This document shows, one piece after another, positions 1-64,000 of a stretch of 64,000 bases of DNA. This stretch comes from Raillietiella orientalis (taxonomy: Eukaryota). Below the pieces are notes generated by a model. The model was not told the origin of the DNA. It was given only the letters and a program-made list of their open reading frames with translations, and searched no databases. The stretch covers positions 2,356,001-2,420,000 of the forward strand of contig JAYWIR010000019.1 of NCBI GenBank assembly GCA_036172245.1, given 5' to 3'. The translations under genes were made by a program, and so were the position numbers. Within the stretch, counting starts at the first letter, position 1. Each line of letters starts with the position of its first letter.

Positions 1-773
1 TTAATAAAAATGGAAAAATAAATACATGACAAGAATAAAACCGAAGAGAATATTAACAAAGATGAGAAAGCTTTGAATGTTGGTTTCTTTCTCTCTCTCC
101 CTCTCTTTTTTTTTCCCAAACACTTTAAATATTAATGTAATGTAGACAATAATAAGGAAAAGCAAACGTTTTTGATTGCATGTGCAGAAGCTACCTGAGT
201 TTGAATGTCTGAAAAAGGGTTCACATCAACTTAATATTTCATTGTAAGGTTAGAAGTTTCTTTGTAAGATTTGAACACTTAGCAATTATTGAAACCTCAA
301 TTTTGAACAACAAATTGTGATATCAAGAATGGAAAAATTGAGGCAAGTGTACATCATTTTAGAAATACTTCTTCCTGCAATGGACAACAGATAATGATTT
401 AAAACTGAAAACAAATGGATGAGACCTGAATTTACTAATGGAAAAGCTGATTCCACCTGAGGTAAGAAAATAAACTAAATTTGGGTAGGAATATGATATC
501 ATTGGAAGCAATATTCCTTCATCTGAATGTTCAAAGAAAATGATTATCTAAGCATTTTCCACTGATCAATTGAAATAAAACCTTTCACTAAATCAGCAGC
601 AGTTTTATTTTCGTATAATGAATGTGAGCACATCAGCAACAGTGTCAAGAGTATAATGAAGTTTAAAAACGCAATGAAACAAACAAAAAAAATGCCACAG
701 AAAATTTAAAATCTTGTAATGCATGCATGGCATAGATCAAAGATTTGATAGGTTTAGTGTGGTGGTCCCAAAA

Positions 774-1592
774 CTATTGGAACAACTTTTTCATTTGGGA
801 AGCATAATACAGATTCAACTGTTTTACTCTACCTTTCAATTCCAGGATTTTTTGTAGAACTGCCTTGTTATTTCTATTGAGATAATATGCTTTTTCCAAA
901 TACTCCTTTGCTTTTTCATATTCCTTTATCTCTAAAAGGGCACAACCCATACGGTATGTTGACTTCAAATTGCAGCTGTCTAACATAAGTACTTTGTTTG
1001 TCAGCAAAATGGCTTCTTTATAATGCTGGAATGCCATTTGACATTGCGCTATGTTGTTATACAAACTAATCTTTAGAGACACTATTTCAGCATTGTCTTT
1101 TTCCTCTGAACTCAAAATCAGTTTCAATGCTAAGCTAAACCGATGAAATGAATCTTTAATTCGGTTTTGAGTATACAGACGAACACCTACACTTTTGTGA
1201 TGCTGAGCACTATTGAACTTCTGTTCATTACTCATGTAAGGAGGTGCAATAGCTATTTCAAATGTCTCGAGAGTTACTGTTACAAAAAATAATTCACATT
1301 CAAATTGACTTTTCTCTTGAAGATTCATAGTCCAGATACAACCATCTAAAAGCCGATCTATTTCTGTATCTCCCTCACCAATTATTACAATTTTGAGAGT
1401 ATTGCTTAAGTCTAGATATGAACATGGTAACTCACTAGAAATATTTTCAAATATAACTTGACATTTTGTACCAAAGGTTGGACGTTTCAATATTATTCCA
1501 CTATTGAGAATGGTTTTTTTAACATGGTATGGGCAAAATGCAAATTTCAGTTCTTTAACCACTGACTTGTCCATTCCAGACTCATTCCCCAT
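774..1592 (-). CDS. Non-canonical FKBP-like protein with degenerate PPIase-like domain and TPR repeats (BDBT / FKBPL-like), single exon
   Basis: 272-aa uninterrupted ORF. N-half VKKTILNSG..KRP..GTKCQV..IIGEGDTEIDRLLDGCIWTMNLQEKSQF is FKBP-fold-like. C-half has TPR motifs (LYNNIAQCQM, KSTYRMGCALLEIKEYEKAKEYLEKA) and a terminal YASQMKKLF typical of FKBP-TPR co-chaperones. Resembles Drosophila Bride of doubletime and vertebrate FKBPL from memory. Alternative start at 1574; minus-strand AATAAA at 604-609. Confidence 0.8.
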   Translation of the reverse strand: MGNESGMDKSVVKELKFAFCPYHVKKTILNSGIILKRPTFGTKCQVIFENISSELPCSYLDLSNTLKIVIIGEGDTEIDRLLDGCIWTMNLQEKSQFECELFFVTVTLETFEIAIAPPYMSNEQKFNSAQHHKSVGVRLYTQNRIKDSFHRFSLALKLILSSEEKDNAEIVSLKISLYNNIAQCQMAFQHYKEAILLTNKVLMLDSCNLKSTYRMGCALLEIKEYEKAKEYLEKAYYLNRNNKAVLQKILELKGRVKQLNLYYASQMKKLFQ

Positions 1593-4500
1593 AAATGTTC
1601 AGCCACAGAAAAATTTTTTGCTGATACAGAATTTGATGATATTTTTGAGTATCTAAACAAAAGCACAATGAATCAACTCATGCCCATTAACCCAAACCTA
1701 AAATCAGTTAAAATTATGAATATTTTCATATTACGTATGCATCCATGAGCAGGACCAATAATGTACAATAAATGCAATGTCATTATTTTCCTGTTTCTTA
1801 AGTTCACCTGGTAATACATTCCATTCAACAACACATTAAAAGTCTTAGGATATCCTGCTACGCAGTTTGCTATTGAATGAAATATTAGCTGGCAGTTTCC
1901 ACATAAAAATCATTTTCAGTCATGATTTACCTATCTACTCAACCCAATGTTTTTGATGCCTACTATTTATTTCCATAATGAACCAGATTGAAAACACATA
2001 TGATACCATCTTGGAAAATAAACAGCTTGAAAAATTTTTGGATTTTAAGTTTAATCTAAGGTGAATCCTTATGGTTGTTTTAAATGACTATTCTACTACT
2101 GAAGAAGAAACACGATTTTTTTGTTTTTCATTGGGCAATTATACTTCTCATTTTACTTTCCAATTGGAGGACTATAATTTTATGCACTGTTACTTCTACA
2201 AACAAACCATATTTTCCCCATTGCATGAACAAATTCCTAGTCAATCTAAAGTGACTCTTTATCATCCAACAATGAATGACTAGCACAACATCTTATTTCA
2301 TAAGAATGGCTTATTCCTATGTATGTATTTGTTTTTCATCATGTACAACTTTTGCCTCTTACATTTATATGTTGAACTTTTCCCAATGTGGAATTAATAT
2401 CATCCAGAAAGCATTCGAAAAATTATACACGTTCTAAGAAAGCAAAGATCAAAAAAGATGTAAAGGGTAAACTAATTTATATTTAAAAGGTTCATTAAAC
2501 ATGAAATAGCAAATGATAGCTTGCTATTGCAAAGTTCTCGCATTTGATATATTACCAGCTTGTGTAAGAGGCTTGATTTTGTTGATGCACCTTTTATTCT
2601 TTAAATACCATATTTAACATTGGAAGCTTTCAGTCAATTTCGATTTACAAAGGAGTAATACAAGAAATTCTTGTAGAGTTTGATACAGACTCAGTAAAAT
2701 TTTGTACTGCATCTAAGACTAAAGATGCTGCAAAACTTACTGTTTAATGTATGAGGTATAATGTATAAGGATAATTCTAAACTATGCCTCAATACAGTAT
2801 AACAGTAGGTTTGAAACGAACTTATCCAAATGACTAAGGAAATCAGCAAATGAATAGAAGATTCCTGGGAGATATGTTTGTTTCTGTTATGAGATGATGC
2901 TTGCTAATTCTTAATCTAGCAATATTGAGGATTATATATTAAGGCAGGATCAGTTTTCTATTAAACTCAATAATAAACTTTCATAATTTAAAACAGAAAA
3001 AACTCTTAAAGCTAAGATCCAATTATGAAAAAATTTTCTCCACAAACTTGGTTACACTTGATTCAACAAAACATAATATGTGCAAGGTTAGCGACATCTG
3101 TGCAAATGTTAAGTGCTCTAGCAGAAAAAAAAAAAAACTGGCTTCTCGGAAAAAAATTTTCATTTGTGGAGTAGTTTATAATTTTTCCGAAATTCCATCT
3201 ACTCCTTCGAGACACAAAAGCTATTAACACATTTACTTGGTAAGTTCACACCTTTTTACAGACAAATAACACGCACGAGAACTAGATGTTTGATAAATAA
3301 GAATTTGAAAAAATTTTGGGGGGGTTTCAAATTTGCTTGTTTCTCAATTTCCTCGTATAGTCATTAGATAAAGATTTACACTGGATTAACACATTTGCTT
3401 AATAATTGATTTTATAATCATCAAAAAATAATTTTGTGATGTATACCCCTGAATCAAGAATTCCAAAAGTGTTTTTAATTTGTGCTAGGGCCTAATCTCA
3501 ACAATACTAACTAACAAACTTATAAGTACTCAAAGTTTGGTGGCTCATTACATGACTAGACGGTTTTGTTGAAAAAAAAACTCAGATGCATTAGCATGAA
3601 ATCTTGATTAGTTTATGAACTGGTTTTCTTTCTTTCCCACTAAATTAGCAAAATCTCTTGTAGTCCTTCTATAACCAAATTTCGATTATTAACACTGTTT
3701 TCTTGCTAAGTTTCACTCTATACATATGCCTATAAATTAATATTCTTCTATTATCATTCTAATATTCTTCATTAGACCTTTTTTTTTTTTTTTCCAAAAA
3801 AAAAAAAAAAAAAGAACTCTTCTACACGAATAATTTTTAGAATTTCAGCTTGATTGTTGGGCAAATTTGAGGAACTTGTGAAGGAAAAATATAAGGTGTG
3901 TATACTCAAACTAAAAATGACAAAGAAAAAGTAAAAAAGCTAAAGTAGAACCAGAAAACATTTTAACATAAAAATCAGTATAGACCAATGATGCAATCTG
4001 TAAATGCTAATTTTGTAATTCTGAATGGAGCTATGAAGGTGACACCTTAAAACCAGAGAACCATAAAACACTACACTGATATTAAAATCTTACAAAATCC
4101 AACTTGGGAAGACTTCAAAGTGAACAATTAGATCTTAATGACAGAACATTAACAATATATCCATACTATGAAACATACATCTCATAATGAAATCATGGTT
4201 GCATTGCATGCATGCAATGTTATTCAAGGGTTACTTGTATGCATATAATGGAGGATTAATAAATTTAATGAATAAGTTTACGTACTCAAAATATTTTCCA
4301 GTTATGCCTGATAATGATTTATCTGTGGCAATGTAAAGAACTGCATCAGAGGCTTGTTCAATACTTTTAAAAAAGAGCCATTGCAAAGGAAACTGTAAAA
4401 GTCTAAAATACTGATTTGCAAATAGGGGAAAATATCGATAACAATTTGTGCTTCTCACAGATCCTGGATGCATACTATTAACAGTAACATTAGTTTCTAG

Positions 4501-5342
4501 AAAGAAATACAAAAATGTCTATTAACTAAAAAAAATTGAAATATGCTCAAGATATTCACCTTTCAAGTGTGTACTCAAGTACAAGGTAAATAATTCAATG
4601 GCAAGTTTACTATGTCCATAAACCTTAAATTTAGAGTATGAAGACCTCAAGAAGTTAATATCTTCGAAGTTGATCCTTGAACAAAGTCTGTGTGCTTCAG
4701 AGCTTATATTTACAATCCTGGCATTATCAGATGATACCAAAGCAGGAAGAAGCAAATTAGTCAAAAGAAAAGGTCCTGTAAAATTAACAAAATAAAAGAA
4801 CAAAAAATGCACATACAGAACCTAAATAATTTGTTTGGAAGCAGATATCAAATCCATTTTCTGTTAAATCTCGGTCATGGTAAAATATCCCAGCATTGTT
4901 GATTAATAGATCTAATGAATCATGTTCTAGAAACTTCAATGCAAGATTTTCTGAGATTTGATAACTATACTTTTGAGAAATTCTTCACAAAAGGCTTGAA
5001 TAGAGTCAAAGGATGTTAAGTCCAACTCCATAAGGAATACATTTTCACTACCAGAATATCTCTTAACAGATTCAAGTACAGAATACTTTGATTTACTGTC
5101 ACGACATCCAAGAATCACTCGAACCCCTAATAAATAAAAGGTTGACGCTTCTTATTTTCATCAAAAAATAATCCGTTTCACATACCCGACCTGGCTAACT
5201 GCTTTGAGACTTCTAGGCCTATCCCTGAGTTAGCACCAGTAAGAACAGCTAATTTGTTTTTCATGTGTGAACCAATAATATATGTGGACTTTCCCAATAG
5301 GTACTTATAAAGATTTGCTAATTTGTGTGTTTCAAATGCCAT
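1547..5342 (-). CDS. Retinol dehydrogenase 11/12/13-like short-chain dehydrogenase/reductase, 6 coding exons
   Basis: Spliced reading gives TGANSGIG (NAD(P) binding), VILGCRD, LDLLINNAG, QTNYLGPFLLTNLLL, RIVNISSEAH, catalytic YGHSKLA, NSMHPGSV and ITGKYFE. Donor GA|GTACGT at 4285 joins acceptor TTTAG|A at 1653/1652, giving the final exon YSKISSNSVSAKNFSVAEHLWGMSLEWTSQWLKN* (stop 1549-1547), which fits the family's A..LW..S C-terminal motif. Start codon uncertain (ATG at 5342 assumed). Confidence 0.85.
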
Positions 5343-8300
5343 TATGCCAAATACTAAGTGCAAACCCCCGAAATTCTTTGATATCCAAATGAACGATAAC
5401 AATGGTTCAAACAGTAGTTAATAGTCACTCAAAAGAATCTGCAACATCAGTAGAACAGTAAAACCGCTCCTTCAAATAATGGCAAAATTTAGTTCTGTTT
5501 TTAATCAAAATTGATGAGTCCCATTGCAAACATGAAAATCCTTGAAACTTATGTACACATTAAAAATGTATTCAGATAATAGTCAACATATTACCAATGA
5601 TAGCTAGTAAAATTTGTACAATTAAAACAGCATGTGACATACTTAACAAGTGTGATGATAATACTAATGAGCATTACAAACATATGCATCAGTTGCTACT
5701 GTACGATCTTTGTTTTGTTTGCACAATTCTTTTATATTACTTCGAAATTCAAAGTGAGGCTTGTTTTCGTATAAGTTTTGAATATATGCAGAAGCATTTG
5801 AAATTTTATACTTTAAAAGAATAACATACTCGGAATGACATTCAAGAAATTTTAAAACAATAATGTGACAAGATAAATCACTCATTACAACTGGAAAACA
5901 TACTTGGGTGTTTAATTTATTACATGGTTCCTTCCATCGGAGTAATCTGTGAACAAAAATTGTTACACGCTCCTCTATGCAAAATGATTTAATTTCTATA
6001 ACTTGCTCGTGCCAAATAAAATATTTGCAATTATGGATGCACTACATATACCGCTTTTTCAACCTTTTTTTTTAAAAAAAAAAAATGGTAACTTTTTAAT
6101 ACACGATAGTAGTAGCTGATGTACCACTACAGCCTCCAATTACTTAAAAACAACCCCATAATTTCCAAGAAACATTATTTATTTGATTGCACCGTGCAAG
6201 GATTTCTAATCCTCCGGCACGTGCCTGCATCCCCAGCACACATTCGCTGCATTTTTAAAGATTACTTTCAAAGCATACCTACGTGAGATCTCTTAGACCC
6301 AACTACGTTGTCTGCACCTCTGGGAGTGCTTCCATGCAACAAACTGAGAAAGCGAAATCATTGCATTCTTGCATGATTCTGATTGCATGTTTGCATTGGG
6401 AGCAGCCCCTACGGACAATCTTCCAGCATTTCGTTCAGACATCAACCACCCGGATAATCCAAATCCTTCTACACGAGGTGGGACCCATAGGTTCCCCACT
6501 GCCCCTTTCCTTTCAAGGCAACCGTGCACGGTGTCCGTCTTTGACAGCTGCAGTGCTTTTAAATGCTCAGCGTAGGAATTTTTCGAAATTCGGAATTCAT
6601 CGAAAATCTTACATTTTAATTGAAAATAAGATATTCTTTTTTTGCTTTTTTACTGACATTGTTACTTGTAAAGAATAGGTACATTTGCAATAGTAAGATC
6701 AAGGCCAAGATCCTTTCAATGCCAACACATACATTTCTCATTTTTATCGACCCGATTTTCCTTTTAGTTTGTCAATAGCATATTCTTATTGAATGTACTA
6801 CTGCCCCAGCCTATACACTAGGATGACAATAGAAGACCTTTGTGAATATGGGCCCTTAAGGCACCAGACAATGCCAAGAAACAGGAAATTGACAGCTGTT
6901 CTCATCATTGCAGTATCTTACCATTCATACTTTTGGACATTTAATAAACGAAATGGACTGGGTCGATTTAAAGACATGCCCTCACAAACTTAAAATTCAC
7001 GTGCTTGAATTCCTGTCACATCTCAATTGGCTTTTTTATATCTGGTTGCTCTACGGGTGAATTGGAATGAAGCCCATTTATAGAGGTATTTTTTTAATAA
7101 CAGATAAGCTCATCGTAAGGAAATGCATGGTTTGTAAAAGAAACCATTATCTGTTTCAGAGTAGAATATCATTTTGAACTTTTATTTATTACAATCAGTG
7201 CAAAGTTAGAACGTACATGACGGCACTGCCTTTGAGTAGATTAGCATTTTCATTGTTCATATTTAAAACCTATTTTGCATTAAATAGCACTTCTAAATCT
7301 ACAATAGAACTAGCTAAACTAAAGCCATCTGTTTTTCAGCCAGAAACAGTATTTTGATCCTTGAATTTTTCACGGTACTTCTAACATACTTAGATCCTTC
7401 AATGCTGTCTCAAGATGTGATGTTGCAAGCCAGTAAGAAATCTTCCGTAAAATGTAGAGCCAACTTTTAACAATGAATCTATCAAATCATTATCTATTTC
7501 CATTCTTCAGGAATTGACAAATTAGAAATTCTTTGTCAAAACGAATCCTAGTAATATTTCTGCGCAAAGCATTTGAAAGGAGTACAATTGATGATTTCCT
7601 TAGGATGATGAATGCACCTAACAATTTCCAAATATTGGATGGTTTCTAATATTTATACCACTCACCATAAATGCAGCCTGTTTTCTGTTACTAATTACAC
7701 GCCATTTACATAATATTTGGAAAATCAATTATTAACTTAGTATTAAAACCCTATAATAGCTACCTCTAAGCCCATGACCTATCATTATCATTTTACATTT
7801 ACAAAAAAAACAAGCTTATCCCTGATTTATTACTCATTAATAATTAGAAATGTTAATTTGTCAGCATATCACCTCCAAATAAAATTCAACTATATTTTAT
7901 TACACATAGCAATCACTTTATTTAACTCATTAACATTCTGATGTTATATGTATAGGAAAATAGCCCCAACTGAAGAATGATAATGTGTTTACAATTGGAT
8001 TTTTTCATCTACCTGGGAGTGCATTTGCTTACGAATTCACAAATTATACATGTCATAATTGAATTTTCTAATGCAAATAGTGATACGGATTTTTAAGAAT
8101 TCAGCACTTACTATCCATGGAGAACTGAGCTCTTATTATTGTTCAGATCATCACAGAAAACAGTCAACCCAGAAAAATGCTTTTTATTTGATAAAAGCAA
8201 AAGCTGAAAAGGTTTCTAACTCTTTCTGAGTCTTCGAAATTTCTTGGTCAGCCTTTCGAGCTTGAGCTTTACTGTTAACCTTGGCTTGAAAACTTGACAG

Positions 8301-14790: not shown

Positions 14791-16190
14791 CTAGTGTTTC
14801 TTTCCTTTATCAGATATGGTATACTTGTCATAACTTTTGCTGGGATCGAAAGGTTCCCATCGACTTGCAGGAAAAATGTGCTTGTTTCTTTCATACCAAG
14901 ACCGTAAAAGCACTTTCCCTGCATGTGACTCATCCTTTTCTATGGTGGCATCACTTAACAGTCGCACATCATCATGTACATCAAAACTAAACAAGGGACC
15001 ACTTTTTCCTCGTGCCTGAATACTGTTAGCAAAACTTAAAAGTAAAATTTTCACTACCTTTGTGACAATAAAATCATAGAATGTGTAATGATGTGGTATA
15101 ATAAGGTCTTCTTTAACAAACATAAGTTGATCTGCACTCACAGGTCTCAATTCATTAAATTCTTTTCTCAATATTTCTAAACATTTCTGCAGAAAATGGT
15201 AGATTGAATGACCTTTCTTCATGCGAAGCTTGCGTTGGTGTCCTGAACCATCCCAATAACTGAAGGTAATCTCAATATCTTCATTTTTGAGAGCTTCCTG
15301 TTTTGCAACCCATTCCTTTTTGATTGCCACATTAGTTGAATTAATAGATTAGATAAAACCTGTCTTAATTCTTCTCTTAAGCGATTATCTTCTTCTTCTC
15401 TTTCGCGATCTGGCAAGAAACTTGTATCAACATCAGGATTTTTACCTATTTTGCTTTTCTTGTGAGTTTTTTCAGATTGCTGATTCAAGTTTTGCATGGA
15501 ATCATCATCACTATCTTCTTCATCCAATCTAAAAGACAATTGTTGAATCTAAAAAGTATTTGGAACCATTGCCTACTCAATATCTTATGAATCCAAATAA
15601 TGTACCTGTGCTTTTTGCTTTCTCTTTTCTGCTTTTTTAGCTTCAAGTTCTCTTTGCTTTTCTAACTGCTTTTCCATTTGTCTTTTAACTAGTTGCCTCT
15701 CCCTTTCTTTGACTACCGTTTCCTGCTTGGCTTTCATTTCATTAAGAGTTACAAGACCAATTGTAGAACTCTATTGGGATAATGGGAAGAAAAAAAAGAG
15801 AGAACTAATGAAATATCCAGTTTTGTACAATGGAGATAATAAAAAAATATATACACTAAAGTCCATGTCTAAACTGAATTATTATTCTGAAACAAAATTT
15901 TCTTTAATGTATTTAAACTCAATTAAAAATTAACTCAGGAACATATAGAAACAGACTGAAACAACTTCAATGATAAACAACAAGTAACTCAGGTTTGTAT
16001 GATGGCATACTTTCAATTGTTGCTCCACAGCATCATAATGGGCAGCGAATTTGTTCTCAATATTTGCCAATTTAAGATCTTCTTCAATCTTCTTCTTCTG
16101 AAATTCTATTTCCTCATGAGCTTTCTCACGTTTCTTCATTAATTGTAGTGCACGGCCTGCTTCACTAGCTGCTCCTTTATAATGTGCCAT
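14791..16190 (-). CDS. FAM50: FAM50 / XAP5 homolog (spliceosome C* associated nuclear protein), 5 exons
   Basis: [126 protein letters not shown]. Confidence 0.97.
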
Positions 16191-22100: not shown

Positions 22101-22358
22101 ATTCTATTTTTAAGCATTCAGCAAATAAATATAAATTTTTAATATTTTCTGAAGTGGTGATTGGTCACTTATAATGAATTATGGAAGGTTTCTCGTCGGT
22201 AGACTTTTATTTAAGTGAGTAATTCGATTTTAAAAATTAGTCATTCTGCGACGCATAGCTTTGTACGCTTGTTTGCCATTTTGGTTTTGTCCGGCGTGTC
22301 TAGTGAGTGTGCTCTGTAGGATTTCGAATTGGAATTCGTTACAACTATCTGTAAAACA

Positions 22359-23066
22359 ATGGATTCCGATAGTGCTGATGAGAGAAATATAATCATGATG
22401 GATAAAGAAGAATCGGGAGCTAAAGTTTACGTGAAAGGTTTTGCGGAATCTGTTGCTAAGGAAGATTTTGAAGAAATCTTCGGGAGATTTGGAAAAATAC
22501 GAAGTGTCTGGATTGCTAGTAATCCAGCAACTTATGCATTTGTGGAATTTTATGATCAGAGAGATGCTGGAAAAGCTGTTGATGAATTGAATGGAAAGAA
22601 TATTCTTGGTGGCAAACTTCTTGTCGAAATGTCACGTAGAGAGTCTAGATCGTATCGAAGCCGAGGAGGTAGAGGCACTTATTTTCGTGGAAGAGGAAGT
22701 CGTTTTTCTGGATATAGAGGAGGCAGAGGAACTGTAAACTTTAATAGGAATTTTAACAGTGGGTCGTCAAACTGGAGAGGTGGAAGGTCAACACGAAGCA
22801 GGGGATTTGGAAGCCGTGGCTTCACCGAAGGTAGAAATATGAACGATGAGTATAGAAGAAATCCTATGGATGCAAGAGGCGGAAGGGAAAGAGATTATGA
22901 TCGTGGATATGAAAGAGGACGGCAGTATGAAAAGCATCCTCATTACAATAGATATGATAGACCAGAGTTTTTCGATGTGACTTCTGGAGTGAATCATTCC
23001 GATGATTCCGGATTTCATAGTAATTCAAGATACAGAAGTCGCTCCCCCGCCTCAAGGTTTAGGTAA
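22359..23066 (+). CDS. Rsf1: Rsf1-like RNA-binding protein (SRSF3/7-type RRM plus G/R-rich tail); possible longer spliced isoform to 24501
   Basis: RRM KVYVKGF..KEDFEEIFGRFGKIRSVWIASNPATYAFVEFYDQRDAGKAVDELNG..LLVEMSR, followed by an RGG-rich region rather than an RS domain or Zn knuckle, ending RYRSRSPASRFR*, like Drosophila Rsf1. Candidate extra exons at 24223-24369 and 24456-24501. Confidence 0.8.
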   Translation: MDSDSADERNIIMMDKEESGAKVYVKGFAESVAKEDFEEIFGRFGKIRSVWIASNPATYAFVEFYDQRDAGKAVDELNGKNILGGKLLVEMSRRESRSYRSRGGRGTYFRGRGSRFSGYRGGRGTVNFNRNFNSGSSNWRGGRSTRSRGFGSRGFTEGRNMNDEYRRNPMDARGGRERDYDRGYERGRQYEKHPHYNRYDRPEFFDVTSGVNHSDDSGFHSNSRYRSRSPASRFR

Positions 23067-24771: not shown

Positions 24772-27700
24772 TTATTTGATAGTTGCCAGGGCAGCTGCAC
24801 GTTTATCAGTGTTCTGGAATAGTGCCCTAATCAAATGTTTGACTTCCTCAGCCCTGTAGTACTGGCAGAGAGGTTCTTCATCTCCAGTCCAACAGTCCAC
24901 TATGTCTGCTAAGCTGGCATCAAGGATCCATTGTAGTTTTCTGAACCGCTGCCACAAGGGAACATACATGGAAGGGGAATGCATGTCAAATTCTGAACTA
25001 TTTTTGAAAGATGGACTTAAGATTTCTTGTCCTTCCTTAAGAACACCATCAAAAATGCAAACAAGAACAGTAGCACTTTTAGCAGGGATATCTTCCAGTT
25101 GCAAAATATGCACACAGATTTGTTGCAGTAGCACATTAAAGATCTCTCCTAATTTCATAAATACTAAACAGATTTGCTACCTCCATATCCTACCTATAGT
25201 TTTAAGGAAATAATTAATTGGGAGTACGTCAAACCATGCTTCTCTTATGTGCCTTAAATGTTTTACGCAGTTATCAATAGCTGTTTTATATATCAGTAAG
25301 GAATCCTGGTCACTGATTAGCTCATGTATACCTATGTTACATATTTATTTTGACATACTCAGCAACAGTACTTACGTCTGGGGAAATGAAAGTGTGATTG
25401 CATAATTTCTGTTTGGTGTTGAACCTGGGAATGCAATTGTTTACATGCCAAGTGACGAAGACCATAAATTTTATCAGCAAAAGAAATAGGATGACCAGGT
25501 AGTGGCATATGTTGATATTTATGTCCCAAAGTAATGCACTGATGAGCCAAAAACTGCAAACTATTATGCAGTATTGCTATTCAAATTGATTACAATTCCT
25601 AGCAGATATGCAATTTACCAGTCTCAAAAAGGCTGCTTTGATGATGCACATGACTTACAACTTCTTGATACAAGTCAATCACATCACGACATGAGTGATA
25701 TAAATGACCAGCTAATATGGCATCACTATCTACAGCTTGTTGCATTGTATTATTTAATAACTCAAGAATCATCGTCACCCCTTTGCTGCCAAAATTCAGC
25801 TTGCAAATGAAGCAATTTGTTACCTTACCTTATCTGACAACAAGGAAACCTAATAATTTCAGCTGGTAAATCAATGTGAAACAGATCTATTTTCTGTTGA
25901 GGCAGTTTCTTTAATAAATCATCAATTAAATCTTGTGAAACAACAGTATCACTCCAGACTGTGTCTTGCAGGGGATGAAGCATAAACTGCCTAGCATTAT
26001 TCAATAGTTGTTGACACACCTTGATGATAAAGTGATCATCAATTTTATTTAATATGTTGATGATGCAGCCTTTCTGTTGTAGAAAACCTGCAGGATACTT
26101 ATTTTATTTAATGTAAGTACAAATGTTACCAATTTCTTGTAACGTGCTTTCCAGTTTTTGTAATTGCTTCATTTCTTCTTTATATGCATTTAACAAGTGT
26201 GCATCTGTAGGAATTGTCTGATATACTAGCACTTCTTCTAAAGACCGTAAAAACTGTGCTGCAAATAATTCACTAAATAAATCCATTAAAGTTGAATTAT
26301 TATTTTTGGTGTGCTGTTGATTTAGTAGCCATTTATTTAAAAAAATGAATGTAGTTGACAGATGATTGATGATTTCAGATAAATTTTCAGCACTTTCACA
26401 GTGGCCTAAGTATAAGGAATTCATTTCCGGTTCTTCACTATCCCAAACTCTGCCATGTGTTTTCAGAATTGGTGTAACTATTTTTTCCATTAACAACTGG
26501 CCAACTGTTTGTAATTTGCCAGGTAAAATACCAGTCACCCACATAGCATGCAACATAGAAGGTACATGCAATTTTATTTTTAGGATATGAATGCAAGGAG
26601 TCTCCTGTGTGAAATCAAGTTGTATGAGATCATTCCATTTTTTGTACAGAATGCTCAGTAACACAGCTTTACGCTGCAGAATTACTCTGTCTAGTGCATG
26701 CAGCAACTGTGTTTCCAGTTTGTGTTCCTTCAGAGTACTTGTGGTGTTTTCATAAGTCTGAAGAGCTTCAGCTGCAGTTGCAAGAGAGCTATCATCCATT
26801 TCTTCATCTAATGTTTGCAAAGCTTGATAAACTTTGTGAAGTAAAGATACTGCTTCTGCACATGCTGTTGTTTCTTCATACTTATTTTGTAGTTCTTTCA
26901 GCTCAGTGTTGTTTTGTTGTAATTGATGCAGAATCTGTAGAATATAAACACTTTAAGCAAAACTCGATTTTTAGCTAACCTCAACAGGGAGTTTCATCCT
27001 TAAAGCATCTAACTTGTTTAGAATACTTTCTGTGTCTAAAAGCAGATTACATGACATTTGCAAATGGGGCATAAATATTGCATACTGGTCTTCCAGCTTG
27101 CAAATAATATTTTGTTTGACTTCATGAATTTGTTGGTGCAAATGATTAATGGCTATATGCAAATTATTGGCTTGCAGTTCACCTGAAAGGATTTTTATTT
27201 GTTAATGTAAGCATTTTTCATCCAGTACACAGCATTTACAATTTGAAGTGAATTTTACTCTAAATCTTAAATGTTCATGAGAATGTAACAAGGACAACAA
27301 CAGTATAAAGGCTGTCAAGTTTTTCAAATTCTTTATCAACGGTTTTTCATTTTAATCAAAAAATGAGAAATTTGAGCACTATAATCAACACTATTAATTT
27401 TGAAAGTCTAAACGCTGAATACTGGTGCAGTCTGGGTAAGCAATAGGATTGTAAGGAGACCTTTGAAAGGAATAGTGCATAGTGAATCCATTAATTTGTG
27501 ATCAATCCTTTAAGTTTTGTCTTAAAAGTCATCTTAAGCAATCAGTGTGTTGTAGGCACTCAAAATTCATTTCTTGCAATGGATATTTTTTCAAATATTG
27601 CTTCATTGCAATAAAACAATCAAATATGAAGAAACTTAATGTATTGTTAGCAACAGTGAGTTTTATAATTGCCAGTGAAATACGCAATTCTAGTGTAGTA

Positions 27701-38430: not shown

Positions 38431-45623
<7,193 letters not shown>

Positions 45624-53180: not shown

Positions 53181-55783
53181 ATGATCAGTAAGTTTTTTTC
53201 ATTGCCTGTATTACTCTTCAAGATTAGATTTAGATTCTTTTTGGATTTGGATTCCTAAATCAATTCTTTTGTTTATCCAGTCAGGTATTTTTCAGATTTT
53301 TCCATTTGGTGTTCATGTAAAGTTTAGTATTTCTAAATGGTGTTTGTTGCTGAGCTGATTCTATTTCAAATTTTTTACAAGAGCAAGGTGACTACTATGT
53401 TTTGCAAGAGTTGCAAATCCTCAAAATACCTTCAGATAAATGTTCTAATGCATCAGTTTGTGAACAATGCATACCATTAGAAATCAGACTAAACATAATA
53501 TAAAATATTATCTATGATATCATGCAGTTTGGATGGTGTGCTTTTATTCTATGAAGGTTTGTAGAAGACAGTATTGTCGATATATTGAGTGTATTCTTTA
53601 GATTAACAGTAATGAGATTCATAGACTGTTTCATTTCCTGGTTTCATGTTTCAAAATGGAACTAATTTTGAGAGGAAAACTCTAGTGACAAATTATTGAA
53701 TTATCATTTCGAGTTTTCATCCTAATGCTAGTCCATAAAGCTCTCTGCTTTATTTATCGAATATGCTTATAATTTTATTAAATCTTACCCAACTTTATCA
53801 TCATATAGATGTATTATTTAAGTTTTAATTTGTTTGATTTCAGCAATGATTCACCATAACAATTTACCATAGTGGAATTGGAAAGAACCATTAGAATATA
53901 TCACTGTATTGAGGGTGTCAGTATGAATGTTGATCAATTAATAAAAGAAAATGACACTGTTGAACCTGATGATTTTGTATTCCAAGAGTCTTATTTAAAC
54001 TTGGAAACTCTTCATGGTATTTCAAAGAAACATGGAAATTATATTTATATACCAAAATTTTATCACAAGGTCAGTTTTGTGATGTAGATATGCACTGCAG
54101 CTACGGCTGATACTGTATATCTATAATGTATGCACATATATACAGTATCTGCAGCAACAAGCTTACTATGCCAATAGTAGTCACATAGCATAAAAAAGAA
54201 AAATGACTAGTTTCTTAACAAATACAACTCAACTCAAATATGCAATTCTGTTGTGTGCTGTTTAAGCTGTGTATTCCTTAAAATGCAGTATAGTTTGCCT
54301 CCTATCTCTTTAAAATATTTTTCTAATTTATTGCAAATATGAAATATTAACATCTTTGAAAGCTGTCTTATGATGATGACGTCCTGATGCAAAAATACTG
54401 CAAGGAAGTTAGGAAAAAATCCCAACAAAGACGAAAGCTGGAAATTTTAAATACAGAGGAATTGGAAGTTGGTTTTTGGTTATCTTGACTTAACTATATG
54501 TTCTCTTTAGTTGCTATTAATGCTTTTAAAGCGACATTCTTCATTGTTGCATGGCAGTGAAAAACCTGTAATTGGCTATGAAGAATATTGTAATTTGAGA
54601 AAATCATGTGGATCAAAATTTAGGTATATATGAATTCTTTTGTCCATATGTTGCTACAATTTCTCATTTCCACATCAGTTCTTATTTATCAGCAACGTTA
54701 TTTTTGAAATTATCAGTTGATGATAGGCGTGGATTTGTACATGTGGAAGACCTTTTTGAATATATTGGTCAGAAAGTATGGTTACAGCATGCATGCATTA
54801 GCCTTTTGTCAAATGATGCTTATGGACAGGGCTTTATACATGAAATAGTAAGACCTCCATCATGGATAATTTATATTATTGTATATCATCAGGATTTGGA
54901 AGTATACATTTATAAGCTTATTCCAATAATGCCTCAAATTCAAAAGTTAGAGGATAGCATGTATCCTTTTTATGTAACAACGGTACTAAGGAAGTTTTTT
55001 TTTTTTCTGGATCCCTTCCACATTGGCCACATACCATTACGGATTGTTCTTGCAAGTGGCTTTCTTGAAGATCTATGTGAACTTCAAAACGAGGAATTAT
55101 ATCTTGATTACCCCAAAAATAATTTATTTTCCCTCGAAGTTTTTCTCAAATTATATAGTACTTACAAAAAATTAGACAAAGATGGTAATGGATTGTTAAG
55201 TGCAGATGAATTAAGTTTTTATGACAGTGGAACTTTAAGCAAATCGTTTATAGATCGTGTATTTCAAGAGTTCGTTTTTAATAAAGAAAGACAAATGGAT
55301 TACAGAGGGTTTCTAGACTTTACTTTAGCATTGGAGCATCGCTCACACCCTCAGTCCTTGCGCTATCTTTTTCGTGTGCTTGACATTGAAGGAAAAGGCT
55401 TTTTGACACGCTTCAGCTTGGACTTTTTTTTTCGAGTAAGTGTCGTCTATAATAAACATGCACAATTATTGTTTATGGAATGAAATAGGATATACAAGCA
55501 CGTATAAAAAATCAGGGCTCTAATCCAGTTTCTTTTGATGATATCTGCAACGAGATATTTGATATGGTTAAACCCATTCATTCAGGAATCATCACTTTGC
55601 AAGATCTTATTCATTGGTGAGTTGAATATTAATGCTAAATGCTGAAGTTGTCTGTCTTTCAGTAATCAAGGAGAAATTGTTGTTGGCATTCTCATAGACG
55701 TAAAAAGTTCTCATGTCTGTGACAGTGGGGATTTATTATTTCAGGAATCACAAACCAGTCTTCCAGGAAAGTCAGTGGAATAA
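53181..55783 (+). CDS. PPP2R3C: Protein phosphatase 2A regulatory subunit B'' gamma (EF-hand; G5PR), multi-exon; 5' end uncertain
   Basis: IPKFYHK|LSYDDDVLMQK, KVWLQHACISL, FYVTTVLRKFFFFLDP, EF-hand LDKDGNGLLSADEL, MDYRGFLDFTLALE, LRYLFRVLDIEGKGFL, PVSFDDICNEIFDMVKP, ITLQDLIHCNQGEIVVGILID; stop TAA 55781-55783. Start placed at ATG 53181 (micro-exon ATGATCA|gtaagt); alternatives are GTG 53872 and ATG 53923. Confidence 0.9.
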
Positions 55784-57783: not shown

Positions 57784-58504
57784 AAAAGCCATTTCCCCGG
57801 GGTAGCTTACACATAATATGTTGCATCACCTGCAGTTGACTCGAGTTTTACTCTAAGTGCTTGTATGGGGTGCTTAAGTAATTCCGACGTAGAGTTTGGT
57901 TAACGAGTAGATGGAGAAAATGCAAAGTCATCTGCCAAGCTGAGTGATATCCCTTAAGGCAAGCATAAGAAGTCATGAGTAATTACATTGTTCACTAGTC
58001 TATTTGGAAATATCACTAACGAGACAAACAAGGCAGCACAACTTGTAGTAGACAAGGTGCATTTAGTATCACTGGATTATTTAATTGATGTTCGAAGCCA
58101 AGGGCTTATGGAATTCGAATAATTCAACAACGCTACGTCCTTCTAGAGGGGTACTCTATTCGTCTTCAAATTCCTCTTTTAGAAACTGGGAAAAGAACAA
58201 AGCGGTTGCACACACTTGACCTCAGAGAAGATTGTTGCATCTTTGTTGATTGATGATCATTCGGACATGTTCGGCGCTCGTTTGGGTGTGCAATGGAAAT
58301 CCCTCAGCAGGTGTTCTCACTTGAAAATCAGCCGTCGCCTTGCGTTTCCATGCTTTGCATGGTTTCATTTTCCAAAACTGCTCCATGATGAAGTGCCCTT
58401 TTTTTCCCATTTTTACTTCGCATCGTCTTGATTCTTGTCATTGTCCATTCTGAGAAAACACTGCACAACACTTCAATGCATTTTCTACTGGAATAGAGGC
58501 TTCT

Positions 58505-59149
58505 TGAGTGTCCTATACAATCCAAATTTCCTACGATGCATGTGATGTTGGGTGTATTGGGTGCTGGTGAAGTCAAACTGAACGCTGCTCAGAAAAACAT
58601 TTTTCAATTCAGCATCCACCCGGAACAGAAGGGTGCGCTTCAGAATTCCCTGTTTTTGAAAGCTGCTTGTCCTTTGGTAAAGCTTGAGGGGTTTTAAATG
58701 TAAAGCTCTGAGCGCTTTCTATTTTCTTTCTACCCTCTTTTCTACACTTTCCGTTCTCCTCTCTACCGTCTGCATCTTCTCCCCCTTTATTCCCTTCGCC
58801 ATTGCTCCCAAAGCACGTTTCCTCTCAGTCTTCCCTCTCTATCTCTTTCTATGTGAGAGTGAAGTTCGCTGTGAACCGAAACCAGAAGAAGCGTGTTCAT
58901 CCGTCTGGAACGAGCCGGTCTACTTCCTGAATAACGATTTGTCTCCAGGAAGCACACCTTGTCATTTTGAATCTTCGTGTTCAGCCAGTGGACTTATCAA
59001 GGTCAAACCCTCAGTGAACTCTCAGTGATCAAGCTGCTGAACTGAAAAATGTATTTTCGAGCAGCGTTCAGTTTGACCTCACCAACAACCAAAACACCCG
59101 ACATCACATGCATGACACCGTAGGAAATGCCGATTGCATAGGACGCTCA
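58505..59149. repeat. Inverted repeat pair, arms 58505-58614 and 59035-59149
   Basis: GGTGAAGTCAAACTGAACGCTGCTC versus GAGCAGCGTTCAGTTTGACCTCACC etc.; ~85% identity plus a 5-nt indel. Confidence 0.88.
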
Positions 59150-60152
59150 TTAACCCTCGATGAACAGCCGTCAACTTTTTCCTTGACAAGATTGGTTCGA
59201 AAACTTCCATTCTGAATCCAAAGTGGGTTGATCGATAAAATGGAAAGTCACACACACACACAAAAAATTCTTCCCAGTCTCGACGCTGCTCAGCTATGAA
59301 CGGTGCTTCAGTGTAGCGGTGAAACTGATTCCGGAATCAATCATGGAAGTACAATTTTTATCCACCGGCGTTTCCCTCGCCAAGTCATAAACCGGGATCG
59401 CTATCGGAGGTCCCGGTTTATGGAATAGAGGGGACGTTGCACTAGCCGAAAAATGTTGTTGAAGTGTTCGTTTCGTCCAGAGGGACTGGTCAGCGATTAC
59501 CTTCCGTTTCATAAGGCACGGAATGGGAGGTACTTCCTCTCAAAAACAGGAAGAATCCCGTCAGGATGGCGGGCATACGAGCTCACATCGGAGAACCCAG
59601 GATGACAACTCCAGTGGCGGGAGCCTATGCGACTTCCTGAGATTTCGTCCTCGTGATCTCATCCGAGCATGCTGGAGGTGTCTCGTGGCTGTTGATGAGT
59701 CTTCAGCAGGGAGTATTGGTGTGTTCCAACACAAACACGTCACTATCCGATAAGCGGTGAACAATACAGCAGGAACATTCAGGCATTGTTTATTTCCTCG
59801 ATGATTCCGCTATCTGAAGTGCAAAACAGCAAAATCATCCAAGAAATGCACAATGAAACTGGAGGAAAGCTTTCTTTATGGAGCGAGGATGCACTGCTTT
59901 TCCGTAAGTGGAGGAGTTTGCAGATGAATTTATGGACGCTGGAAGCTCCCGAGCTCGACCCGACGTGTCTAAAAGTCCCTTTTTTCCAGTCAGGTTAGCA
60001 AATGCCTCGTGAAGACATGGAGCAGTTGGGGATGAGGCAGGCGCCAGGGATTTTTCTAAAGTATCGAAGGATTGGATCTTGAAAGTCAGTGGCAGCTGGA
60101 GCACCACTGGACTGAAGCACATCTAGAAAGGCGTCAGTCATGCGCAGTTGGA

Positions 60153-60315
60153 GGACATCTCTATTTATCAGAAGGGCACGAGATAAAAAGTTTACGTTTA
60201 CCGCATCAAGCAGGCCGTTGTGCAGTAGGGATTTGTGAATAGGGAATCTCAGTCAGGACCTTGAGACGCTGGATGAAGACAGTCAAAAATTTACTGGGTT
60301 GAAAAAGCCATTAAC
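60153..60315 (+). repeat. Copy 2 of ~165-bp diverged direct repeat
   Basis: Same motif order as 57615-57783, roughly 80% identity by eye. Confidence 0.85.
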
Positions 60316-60694
60316 GTATGTGTGTGTACAATGGGAAAGGAAGTGCCTTTGCTGCTGTTGATTGCTAGAGACTGGAGGAGAGGGTTCATGACCGTAGCGA
60401 CTGATGCAGAAGATTAGACCTAGTGAGATGATAGCACTCGGTTTTCCTGCGTATTCAGGGAAGAAAGATGAACGTCTGCTCTACATCAGGGTCCATCGGA
60501 CCAAGGATTCATCATTTCCCCTGTTTGCTTGGCATTCTCTGGACATTTGCGTCTCTGTTTGCTGGACATCTGCGTTTCGCACTTCTGACCGGACAGATGC
60601 TCCACACAAACGGGAGAAATTGGAGAGGGCATGCATCATTAAGATGCTAGTTCGTAATGCCTCCTATGAGAAATCTTACGCTGCAGTCCCTGTT

Positions 60695-61167
60695 GGATCA
60701 CAAGGAACAGGAAGCTCTGAAGAGAACATTCGAAATCTTTCCATGTGCTTGCAGTTGATTTGCCGTTTTCTCTTCGCAATGGATAGTGGTGGTGTTGCTG
60801 TTTCCCTTAAATGGTGCTACACTGTTCATCAGGTAGCAGACCTCAGCGTCGCACCGCCTTTTCTCAGAATGCTTTGATCGCGTTCCTCTCAAGCTGGACG
60901 CGGATCACGTCATCTTGTAGCCCCTTTCCACTCTTTGCTCTGCTCAGAAATGCACTGTTCTTCATTGCAGACCGGAAATGACGACCAACAAGTGGCTCTG
61001 GTATTTCCGGAAGTGATGCTAAGAGCCGAGATCTAATGAACACTGTAGTGCCATCTAAGGGAAACAGCAACACCACTATTCATTGCAAAGAGAGAACGGT
61101 AGATCAACTGCAAGCTCACGGAAAGAGTTCGGATGTTCTCGTCAGAGCTTCCTGTTCTTTATGGTCC
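60695..61167. repeat. Inverted repeat pair, arms 60695-60834 and 61031-61167
   Basis: About 19 substitutions and one 3-nt indel over ~137 bp. Visible in the ORF track as near-identical peptides on opposite strands (KGNSNTT..QLQAHGK..RASCSL). Confidence 0.9.
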
Positions 61168-61604
61168 TCCAGATTCTGGAAATCTCAGAACGAGTTGCTC
61201 GTGATCTGTTCCATTTGCAAAACTTTGGTATGGGATGGAGGAGTGTTCTGTTTCGATGCCTTTGGGGAATCGAGGCGTCCTACATTTTACTTCTTCCCGG
61301 AGCCACGTATTTTTGGTGCTCAACCAGGCGGTGAGTCGTTCGCCGATTTTCCCCTGTACTTGTGTTCATAGACAGGATATGCATGGAATGTGTCATGGGA
61401 AGCACAAGGGTCGTTTCCAAAGGTCTCTCCTTTAGAGTCACGGTCACTTTTCTCTGGTTAGATTTGGGATTCACAAGAAAACTGGTCTCCTAAACCCATC
61501 CCAAAGGACTTCCCTCTTAGCATGTGGCGAAGTTTATCGTCGGTGATCCAACCCTCGCTGTTTTCGCGCCGAAGTTTAAGCAAGAGGTTAAGTTTCCTGA
61601 TCCT

Positions 61605-61672
61605 GGAGGCTGACATTCTTTAAACGGGGGAGGCAGAGCACTCCCTTCCCCGTTTAAAGAATGTCAGTCTCC
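61605..61672. repeat. Near-perfect 25-bp stem hairpin (68 nt)
   Basis: GGAGGCTGACATTCTTTAAACGGGG ... CCCCGTTTAAAGAATGTCAGTCTCC; the single difference is a G-U pair on the + strand. Confidence 0.9.
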
Positions 61673-61879
61673 AAGGCCAGAAGAAAGTGTTACACAGCAC
61701 GATTGGCATAGCTGTCGCACACCGTTCCCCCAAGCGAAATAGTCCCCGCCTCACCTTCTGATTGCTTTAAAGGAGGTTAAGAGAAAAAGTGGCAACTGAC
61801 ATAAGGGAGACCTCAGGAAAAGGACTATCGGGTTGCTTTAGGTCGATGAAGATGCATCAGTTTGTCTCATCATTCACGT

Positions 61880-64000
61880 GAAGCATATGTTGTCCGTGGA
61901 GTCTGCGACGACGGCCACGAAGAAAACTCCGTGTCTCTCCCGTCTCAGAGGACCCCAAGGGAAATTTCGTGGTCGTCCACGCCGAATAGATGAATGGGCT
62001 CGTCTCATGAATCACAGAATAGGTCGTGGGAACCCAAACGCATCTCGTTTTGCCTCTGCATTTTCTGAGCAGATCTCTTCACATCGATCTGGCCTTGGCG
62101 TCGCTGGGGAAGGCGATCGCCAGTAGAAACCTTCCTTTCCTGTTTCCCTCTGACGTCATCACCAAGTCGAGAGGAAAGAGTCCACCTCTACTTTCCTCTC
62201 CCTACCCCTTCCACCTCCGCCAGTCCTGGTCCGCTTCCTGGCATTGGCCAAGAGGCCAGGGACGTCTTTCTACAGCGCTCGAGGATGTGAAAGGGGCAAC
62301 AAAGCCAAGCAGGCTGTCGCGCACAAGAAGTCTTGAGTGGTCTGGCTCCTTCATTGCTCGGATAGATTCCAGGATGTTTTTCGAAGAGGAAGCTTACATT
62401 CACGTCTGCACCTACTCTGCGTGGGGAATAGATGCCGAGGCTTCCTCCTCCCGCTTCTTGACAGAGGACACGAGGGGACCACTCACTTAATGCATTCCTC
62501 CAGAAGAAGGGCATCCGCTCCGAGCTGAGTAGGCGGAGGGTATGGGAAGACGTGCCCCCGCAACCGAGGGGGAGCGCAACGGACCGTCATCAAGAAGCGA
62601 GTGGGGGGCAAGTCAAACCAGGAAGTCCCCCTTCATGGTTTGCTGGGGAGCCACTGGAAGTAGAGGTCTCTCAGCAAGGAGGCGGTGAAAGAGAGGTTGC
62701 CGTTTCTGCGAAGGACGCGCCTCTAGGAAGGCTAAAGCTCCTTCCTCGACCTTCGGGTCCTCTGTCCCTGGAGGAACCACGCAAGGAAAGCCATTTGCAA
62801 CGGGAAGAGCATGCTGGAGGGGTGAGCCGGAGACATGGGTGGGGGAGTCGCGGATGCAGACGGGTCCCTAGCTTGCAGGGGGGGGGGCGCTGATCGACGC
62901 CCGACCACCTGCGCGCGCTCCCGTCCTGCGTTCCCCGTTACGGCGAGGACAAGCGGAAGGCTTGAGCTAGGCGCCTGGAGCCTTTCCTTGAGGAGGATGG
63001 CCGGGGAGAGATGCTGGATCGGGGAGCAGCTGCCGCGGGCTCGCCCCTGAGCAGAGGATGTCATCACGCGCCACCGGAAAGATTCCTTCGTATCTCTGCA
63101 CTAGGAGCTTTCCTTCCCAAACATGGAGAGCCGGAGGAGAAGGATCTATACGTCTCCGCGTGGCAGGGGGCTTTCCCTCGCCTTCCCGGTTACCTCTCCT
63201 CCTTCTTGGAGATCCCTGCGCAGCCCCATCTTCGAAACATGCGCGGGCGCCCGAAGAGGCACCATGCGAGCTTTCGAGGGAAGTTGCATCTCCTTGCGGA
63301 CTCCAGGTAGAGCTCCCTTCCCTTTCTTCTTTCCCCACCGCCTTCTTCTCCCGACTTCTCCGGATTCGAGGCCTCTCTAGGAAGCCGCGCGCAAAGGAGG
63401 AAGGGGAGCGAGCGATCGAGGGGGGGGGAGAGAAGGTGCACCTGACGGACAGGGAGCGCTCTTCCTTCCCCGCTCCTCGCAGCGCTCCCCTCCACGTGTT
63501 ATTTGGGAACACGGTCACCCAAGACCGAAGTGCTGGCCTTCGGGGGGGGGGGGAAGTCGCCTCCGGTCCGCTTTGGAGAGGCTGCTCTCGGTGAAGCTGC
63601 AGAGGCCGGCAACGGCGCGCACAGAATCAGAGGCGCCAGCGGCGTCGCCTCTGGGGAGGAAGTCGACGAGGACCCTTCCCTCCCTCTTCCTTAAGAGGCA
63701 GTGGCAATGAGAGGGAAGAAGGGGGCGAAAAGAGGAGGAGAGGAAAGAAGAGACTGCAGGAAGGCGAAGAATGGGAGAAGGAAGATAAAGGGAGGGAGGG
63801 AAGAAGAGAGAGAGAAGAGGAGAAAAGAAGGACAAAGTTTAGAGTCCCTTCAGCTCGGTGCGCACGCGCAGCGGAGGCGATCGAGGAAAAGAACGATTGT
63901 GCCCGAAGGGAGGCGAACGCCTGCCAATGTCCAGGGAAGCAGGAAGATCTCTTCCGCCCGCCAAGGAAGAAGGAAGAGAGAAGGAGGAAAAGAGGAACAG
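61880..64000. other. GC/CpG-rich block with G-runs and long polypurine tracts; no recognisable gene
   Basis: Visually ~60% GC versus ~30% in 1-56 kb. G runs at ~62878, ~63420 and ~63542; A/G-rich tracts at ~63705-63835 and 63963-64000. Overlapping ORFs in all frames lack known motifs. Confidence 0.6.

Follow-up and report, generated by a model that had tools for sequence, protein, structure and literature searches.

The Adh and Adh-related (Adhr) genes of Drosophila reportedly share a dicistronic mRNA, which Brogna and Ashburner are said to have described in 1997. The portions of the FlyBase 'Rule-Benders' paper drawn on here (Crosby et al. 2015, PMC4528330) give 159 annotated dicistronic pairs for D. 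melanogaster, of which 45 have no monocistronic alternative. Stop-to-start distances in Drosophila range from negative values, meaning overlap, to more than 1 kb, and from −34 to 319 nucleotides (nt) at the polycistronic-only loci. The same portions describe 18 gene pairs that have a coding stretch in common in different frames ('multiphase'), with most overlaps shorter than 40 nt, and 26 of the 36 genes of these pairs are found on polycistronic transcripts. Where the 3′ gene also has monocistronic mRNAs, a downstream promoter is their usual source, and MOCS2A/MOCS2B (Mocs2 and CG42503 in flies) is given as a conserved bicistronic locus (PMC4528330). Drosophila BDBT (CG17282) and vertebrate FKBPL combine a non-canonical FKBP-like N-domain with three TPRs, according to the sections used of PMC7402468 and PMC10040729. 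Here we describe a window of 64,000 nt from Raillietiella orientalis (contig JAYWIR010000019.1, positions 2,356,001 to 2,420,000), in which a short-chain dehydrogenase (SDR) gene and an intronless BDBT/FKBPL-like open reading frame (ORF) overlap out of frame on the minus strand.

The comparison with other arthropods suggests that the SDR and BDBT-like genes form an old, conserved, co-oriented gene pair, and the conservation of this layout is the new result. As for expression, we favour a joint reading in which transcription of the SDR continues across the BDBT-like ORF as far as an AATAAA at 609-604, and a separate, shorter mRNA supplies most of the BDBT-like protein. The probability that we give to this reading is roughly 0.45, and it is put forward as tentative. 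No description of an SDR-BDBT or SDR-FKBPL dicistron or gene pair was found in the literature searched. An overlap with a dehydrogenase is likewise not described in the sections used of the BDBT and FKBPL papers, where 'dicistronic' and 'bicistronic' occur 0 times (PMC7402468) and 'dicistronic' 0 times (PMC10040729).

The two genes and their overlap

The SDR gene was modelled with six coding exons. Its parts are listed below in the order of transcription, with window positions; a slash marks the splice site.

5186 to 5342, minus strand: SDR coding exon 1, with the ATG at 5342 and the cofactor motif TGANSGIG; weak adh_short fragment match
4971 to 5126, minus strand: SDR exon 2, with GT-AG borders and the frame kept
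4822 to 4926, minus strand: SDR exon 3, with the NNAG motif
4560 to 4775, minus strand: SDR exon 4, with the catalytic Ser and YGHSK (= YxxxK)
4286 to 4496, minus strand: SDR exon 5, ending in ...GKYF plus GA, donor GA/GTACGT, phase 2
1653 to 4285, minus strand: SDR intron 5, 2,633 nt, in which an internal promoter of the BDBT-like gene may lie
1547 to 1652, minus strand: SDR last coding exon (exon 6), peptide YSKISSNSVSAKNFSVAEHLWGMSLEWTSQWLKN, stop TGA at 1549-1547

Joining the six exons gave a coding sequence of 951 nt, which is a multiple of 3 and encodes 316 amino acids (aa) with the C-terminus ...EYSKISSNSVSAKNFSVAEHLWGMSLEWTSQWLKN directly before the stop. The model has GT-AG at every exon border. 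The acceptor of intron 5 reads TTTGTTTAG, and exon 6 begins right after it at 1652. Intron 5 is about 40 times as long as the four other introns (2,633 nt versus 44-63 nt), and no ORF with a family match was seen in it in the ORF list. The spliced model carries TGANSGIG, INNAGI, NISSEAH and YGHSK, all aligned with the corresponding motifs of homologues. A search with exon 4 found 27 homologues, with a best E-value of 4.5e-14. Pfam adh_short matched with E 0.0071 and 0.00029, which is below the cutoff in a scan made of single-exon fragments only. Judged by its motifs and its open frame, the minus-strand gene is an intact classical short-chain dehydrogenase of the RDH11/12 type.

The C-terminus of the SDR was examined by alignment and by a profile. 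In the alignment, LW stood at the same place in 15 of 15 RDH12-like homologues, and AEHLWGMS of exon 6 lined up there. The profile, made from the C-terminal 48 residues in each of 23 homologues with the window excluded, was searched against all six-frame peptides of the whole window, 2,106 in number. The exon-6 frame ranked first among the 2,106 (E 0.076, profile positions 17-44), and the end of exon 5 ranked second (profile positions 1-15). The E-value of exon 6 is marginal taken alone; what assigns this exon to the SDR is that it ranks first, that its profile range complements that of exon 5, and that the splice phases match. None of the alternative last exons within intron 5 outscored exon 6 with the profile. 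An SDR that simply reads on past exon 5 to the TAA at 4231, named in the earlier note as the competing end, was rejected, since this end is without the conserved LW tail in the alignment and in the profile. Three proposals of the earlier note thus hold in the six-exon model: that the C-terminus needs a 2.6-kb intron joining the donor at 4285 to the acceptor at 1653, that the SDR stops at 1549-1547, and that its tail is of the A..LW..S kind typical of RDH11/12.

The second gene lies at the 3′-end of the first. The positions of the ORF, of the overlap and of the stop codon before it are as follows.

774 to 1592, minus strand: intronless BDBT/FKBPL-like ORF (P0001), 272 aa, stop TAG at 776-774, alternative start ATG 1574
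1547 to 1592, minus strand: overlap of the SDR and BDBT-like coding regions, 46 nt in different frames, or 28 nt counted from ATG 1574
1599 to 1601, minus strand: TGA in the BDBT frame, 6 nt 5′ of ATG 1592, so that the ORF cannot extend further 5′ in this exon

The BDBT-like frame is open from 1598 to 774. Residues 24-97 of its product matched Pfam PF18023 (FKBP_N_2, 'BDBT FKBP like N-terminal') with an E-value of 4.8e-11 and 43.2 bits, the cutoff being 27. The Pfam TPR models also scored above their cutoffs (TPR_2 34.8, TPR_1 30.5 and TPR_8 26.9 bits), and the sequence matches in PDB were the TPR domains of FKBP51 and FKBP52 at E about 1e-10. In an exhaustive HMMER search of a representative library, 1,082 proteins passed E ≤ 0.001, of which 140 also passed E ≤ 1e-10; the top E-value was 3.5e-29. 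These relatives are mostly 260-300 aa long and collinear with the query; the top matches have lengths of 274-294 aa and align from query residues 22-26 to residue 271. Among the relatives with a name are proteins of a stick insect (Dryococelus, KAJ8874164), a damselfly (Ischnura, XP_046401588), a louse, a leaf beetle (Leptinotarsa, XP_023018539) and a horseshoe crab (Tachypleus, XP_076346866). The identity to any relative found was at most 44%, and a word-indexed search returned a single weak match, FKBP4 with 2e-4. The exact sequence, counted from either ATG, had no match in a collection of 15 billion proteins. By such comparisons the BDBT-like protein is fast-evolving. On the evidence of its domains and its intact frame, the ORF is a real, intact gene of the BDBT/FKBPL-like non-canonical FKBP-TPR family.

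The start of the BDBT-like protein was confined to two codons. Before residue 89, the only in-frame methionines are M1 (ATG 1592, context TTTATGG) and M7 (ATG 1574). The context of ATG 1574, GGAATGG, is better than that of ATG 1592, and M7 shares a column with the start methionine of the homologues in an alignment of 38 proteins. The SDR stop falls at BDBT-like codon 15-16. Because the next in-frame methionine after M1 and M7 is residue 89, the overlap of the two coding regions is obligatory. It had already been proposed that the FKBP-TPR ORF opens 46 nt 5′ of the SDR stop (at ATG 1592, or else at ATG 1574) and that an in-frame TGA stands at 1601-1599 ahead of ATG 1592; both were reproduced.

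The same layout in other arthropods

A survey for fusion proteins covered 153 BDBT-like proteins, namely the best 150 of the 1,082 matches to the window protein and three cluster members. An SDR domain was present in one of them, P0079, a hypothetical protein of 568 aa from the firefly Lamprigera yunnana. The order in P0079 is adh_short (E 7e-38, residues 37-237), then FKBP_N_2, then TPR, and the chain runs directly from the SDR tail region into the BDBT-like N-domain. Between its SDR half and the SDR of the window, the identity is 40% (E 1e-54). Whether P0079 is a true fusion or an artefact, it implies adjacency, so the SDR and BDBT-like genes must abut on the same strand in the firefly.

Metagenome contigs were searched with P0180, a BDBT-like protein, and seven insect-like loci were obtained. 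They represent five distinct sequences, since L002 equals L003 and L004 equals L005. Each locus has an intronless BDBT-like ORF of 286 aa, which is 34-35% identical to the window protein and 40% identical to its closest match, a stick-insect protein. A tblastn search of L004/L005 with the window SDR gave two matches 5′ of the BDBT-like ORF and on its strand, namely exon 4 (E 5e-6) and exon 5 (E 1.7e-13). Exon 5 is located about 4.9 kb 5′ of the BDBT-like ATG, and it ends in GKYF plus AA/GTAAGT, so that the position and phase of the intron equal those of GKYF plus GA/GTACGT in the window. The other four of the five distinct sequences (L001, L002/L003, L006 and L007) have an SDR-tail-like frame, ...NSGNSMHNELLWHFGKEAK and a stop, with 'LLW/LMW', which stops 77-99 nt before the BDBT-like ATG. 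At least one in-phase AG acceptor is present in each of these four. No SDR exon was found within 8 kb upstream of the BDBT-like ORF in L006, because insertions have lengthened its intron. Compared with L004, the insertions in the last SDR intron of L006 are at 2336-2626 (about 0.3 kb) and 2875-4697 (about 1.8 kb).

The region upstream of the insect BDBT-like ORFs was also compared. In bins of 40 columns, 70-88% of positions are invariant in an intron block (−388 to −192) that directly precedes the SDR tail. More distal blocks of the intron have 9/40 to 32/40 invariant columns, and several reach 65-80%. No clear promoter signal was seen in this upstream conservation profile.

In the plan common to the three lineages (window, firefly and insect contigs), an SDR exon ends after GKYF, a long intron leads to a short tail exon, and an intronless BDBT-like ORF adjoins that tail exon. 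The BDBT-like proteins of these lineages have mutual identities of only 27-35%. The earlier note had looked to related genomes for a conserved overlap. The tandem layout does recur, in the firefly model and in the contigs; the coding regions of the contigs are separated by the gap given above. The conserved layout fits a long-lived transcription unit common to both genes, and such a unit is plausible. If it is confirmed by transcript data, it would belong to the few loci in which two proteins have stayed linked in very distant arthropods. It would then also be a natural test case for how animals express a long ORF that stands behind, and overlaps, an upstream ORF of 316 codons.

Expression of the two proteins

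Two poly(A) signal words bear on the 3′-end of the SDR mRNA.

604 to 609, minus strand: canonical AATAAA, the first downstream of both stops, likely the shared poly(A) signal
1155 to 1160, minus strand: ATTAAA, a variant poly(A) signal that falls within the BDBT-like ORF

The AATAAA at 609-604 is 165 nt past the BDBT-like stop. The earlier claim that it is the first canonical one on the minus strand after the SDR stop was confirmed, and it is in fact the only one on that strand from 1700 to 1. Between the coding regions of these same-strand neighbours there is no space for a terminator and a promoter, as they overlap here and are 77-99 nt apart in the insect contigs. Because this space is lacking and no AATAAA occurs before 609-604, SDR transcription would run on through the BDBT-like ORF. 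The long SDR mRNA would then be structurally dicistronic. The BDBT-like protein would come chiefly from a shorter mRNA, whose start would lie in the last SDR intron or where the last exon opens, and whose 3′-end would be that of the long one. The 88 nt before ATG 1592 (1680-1593) contain no ATG, and an mRNA start within them would give a clean leader. We infer a candidate internal promoter in the last SDR intron. The earlier note had offered a CpG-containing patch at about 3090-3360 as a candidate for such a promoter. The region 3001-3400 of intron 5 has an observed/expected CpG ratio of 0.70, above that of the other 400-nt bins of the intron (0.11-0.52, mostly 0.1-0.3).

Intron 5 also contains an inverted repeat at 3774-3820 (I5), which consists of a T-run and an A-run of 20 nt with a 7-nt spacer and 85% complementarity. 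A T/A tract at 6054-6089 resembles it.

A number of observations weigh against the favoured reading. As a promoter mark, the CpG patch rests on 7 CpGs; it is too weak to use and was rejected. Initiator-like (Inr-like) words carry little meaning in AT-rich DNA. P0079 is one automatic gene model, which may be an artefact of gene adjacency. Exon 5, an intact tail and the BDBT-like ORF were never found together on one contig, and the position of the in-phase acceptor differs in every contig sequence. In L004/L005 (L004:7756-7759), the SDR tail exon has a deletion of about 68 nt compared with L001, L002, L006 and L007. The LLW segment is thereby lost and a stop follows closely on the acceptor, with the upstream exons 4 and 5 staying open, and the dehydrogenase tail may be decaying in this lineage. 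By these comparisons the last SDR exon is unstable in the insect contigs. Inside the 77-98-nt gap of L002/L003 and L007 there are AATAAA words, and therefore the SDR mRNA there may end before the BDBT-like ORF. In the window, the ATTAAA at 1160-1155, which is absent from the earlier note, could end SDR mRNAs early, inside the BDBT-like ORF. Finally, Bdbt/CG17282 has 0 occurrences in Files S1-S5 of PMC4528330, the FlyBase lists of polycistronic and overlapping genes.

Among the alternatives, a functional dicistronic mRNA fares best. The complete SDR mRNA would then also be the template for the BDBT-like protein, through internal entry or through termination at 1547 and backward reinitiation at the AUG at 1574 or 1592. 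The same tight layout in three divergent lineages and the lack of an AATAAA before 609-604 agree with this. So does the Drosophila precedent of 159 pairs with distances of −34 to 319 nt at the exclusive loci, as given in the portions used of PMC4528330. The difficulty lies in translation. The spliced SDR mRNA has 15 AUGs ahead of ATG 1592, and leaky scanning from the cap to the BDBT-like ORF was rejected for this reason. As the 15 upstream AUGs bar scanning, dicistronic translation would need internal entry or reinitiation after an ORF of 316 codons. Reinitiation after a long ORF and leaky scanning past many AUGs are inefficient in eukaryotes. The gap of the insect contigs holds 2-4 ATGs of its own. 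A scan of the whole window with Rfam found no family, and nothing like an internal ribosome entry site was seen. We consider a functional dicistron unlikely, although it keeps a real chance.

The broadest form of this alternative is an ancient, pan-arthropod, obligately co-transcribed dicistron of an RDH-type SDR and a BDBT-like protein, with the second protein made via internal entry or reinitiation at the overlap. We regard this form as doubtful and quite unlikely. If it were true, the dosage of both proteins would be coupled, and a functional link between the SDR and the BDBT-like protein would be hinted at. In the fly clock, and likewise in planar polarity, BDBT acts as a cofactor of casein kinase 1. 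Spliced-leader operons are not known to occur in chelicerates and insects.

Separate, partly overlapping mRNAs are the next alternative. The SDR mRNA would be polyadenylated early at a variant signal in the BDBT-like ORF, and the BDBT-like gene would have its own promoter. The ATTAAA of the window and the AATAAA words of L002/L003 and L007 provide possible signals, but the gap signals are absent from L001, L004 and L006, and the insect BDBT-like ORFs contain neither AATAAA nor ATTAAA. Moreover, a poly(A) site within an essential-looking ORF would truncate the BDBT-like mRNAs too. The probability of this arrangement appears to be small.

The BDBT-like mRNA could instead use the SDR promoter, if a donor in the 5′ untranslated region were spliced to the acceptor at 1653 and the SDR coding exons were skipped. 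The 60 exon nt from 1652 to ATG 1592 are without an ATG, but by our own estimate a stretch of this kind arises by chance in about one case in three. Shared promoters with 5′ non-coding exons are the commonest form of exon sharing in Drosophila, with 130 genes (PMC4528330, in the portions used). No upstream donor was identified for the SDR gene, and we see only a slim chance for this alternative.

A fusion protein could arise through an alternative 3′ splice site, such as an in-phase AG with the exon start at 1500, by which ...GKYF would be joined to GIILKRP.... In-phase AG candidates are present at 1500, 1434 and 1404, and P0079 holds both domains in one chain. That chain is an automatic model and possibly an artefact of adjacency, and it is the only fused one of the 153 BDBT-like proteins surveyed, of which 148 begin with M and most are 260-300 aa long. 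Joining at 1500 would also remove the SDR tail and 31 N-terminal residues of the BDBT-like protein. A fusion protein is therefore very improbable.

The idea of a functionless recent retrocopy or pseudogene captured in the SDR 3′ untranslated region, raised in the earlier note for the last exon of the host, draws on the intronless ORF and is hardly credible, because the ORF is intronless and in the same position behind the SDR tail in lineages with BDBT-like proteins only 27-35% identical, its 272-codon frame is intact with family matches above the Pfam cutoffs, and no A-tract follows it. A very ancient insertion of the BDBT-like ORF is possible.

The gene pair is of consequence for annotation too. 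Automatic pipelines will probably fuse both genes, as in P0079, or else may cut the SDR at the read-through stop (TAA at 4231) and lose its conserved tail.

Neighbouring features and comparison with known systems

Several other features were seen in the window. An exon of a FAM50/XAP5 homologue lies at 14791-15348 on the minus strand. Among named proteins, its best matches were spiders (Parasteatoda at 79%), with other chelicerates at 75-77% and insects at 70-76%. Taken by itself, this exon would place the window in an arthropod, probably a chelicerate, which is an approximate assignment. Its match to the MetaClust protein P0183 (440 aa) scored 408 bits, far more than the named arthropod homologues with at most 301 bits, and P0183 may therefore stem from this or a closely related species. 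Four long open frames were labelled by eye. The frame at 22320-23066 (plus strand) is presumably RRM/RG-rich splicing factor-like, and we take that at 38781-39179 (minus strand) to be YY1-type zinc finger-like. The frame at 26104-26952 (minus strand) is assumed to be ZW10-like, and that at 54599-55483 (plus strand) presumably resembles an EF-hand subunit of the PP2A B″ type. From 58000 to 64000, the G+C content climbs from about 0.33 to 0.45-0.60. Long open frames on both strands at 62000-64000 are expected from composition alone. A CpG-island-like region, a repeat and foreign DNA are all conceivable for this G+C-rich end of the window.

The locus can be set beside four known systems. The first is the BDBT/FKBPL family itself: as in its members, in the sections used of the two papers, the window ORF combines FKBP_N_2 with TPR; it is at most 44% identical to any relative found. 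Further marks of the family are lost prolyl isomerase residues and the binding of CK1 (DBT) or Hsp90. The second is MOCS2A/MOCS2B, which is a deeply conserved two-protein locus, as the SDR/BDBT-like pair appears to be. MOCS2 is one transcription unit and its products are subunits of one enzyme, whereas no functional link is known for the RDH-type SDR and BDBT.

The third is Adh/Adhr. The upstream cistron of that locus is also a short-chain dehydrogenase and the second ORF is located downstream on the same mRNA. Adh and Adhr are non-overlapping tandem duplicates, whereas the SDR and BDBT-like proteins are unrelated and their coding regions overlap.

The closest resemblance is to the multiphase pairs of Drosophila, as far as the portions used of their description go. 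Like them, the two genes are adjacent and on the same strand in an arthropod, with an out-of-frame overlap of a few tens of nt. Unlike them, the SDR/BDBT-like layout spans lineages far more distant than Drosophila species. The overlap would fit a kind already catalogued in Drosophila, and the pair itself appears to be new.

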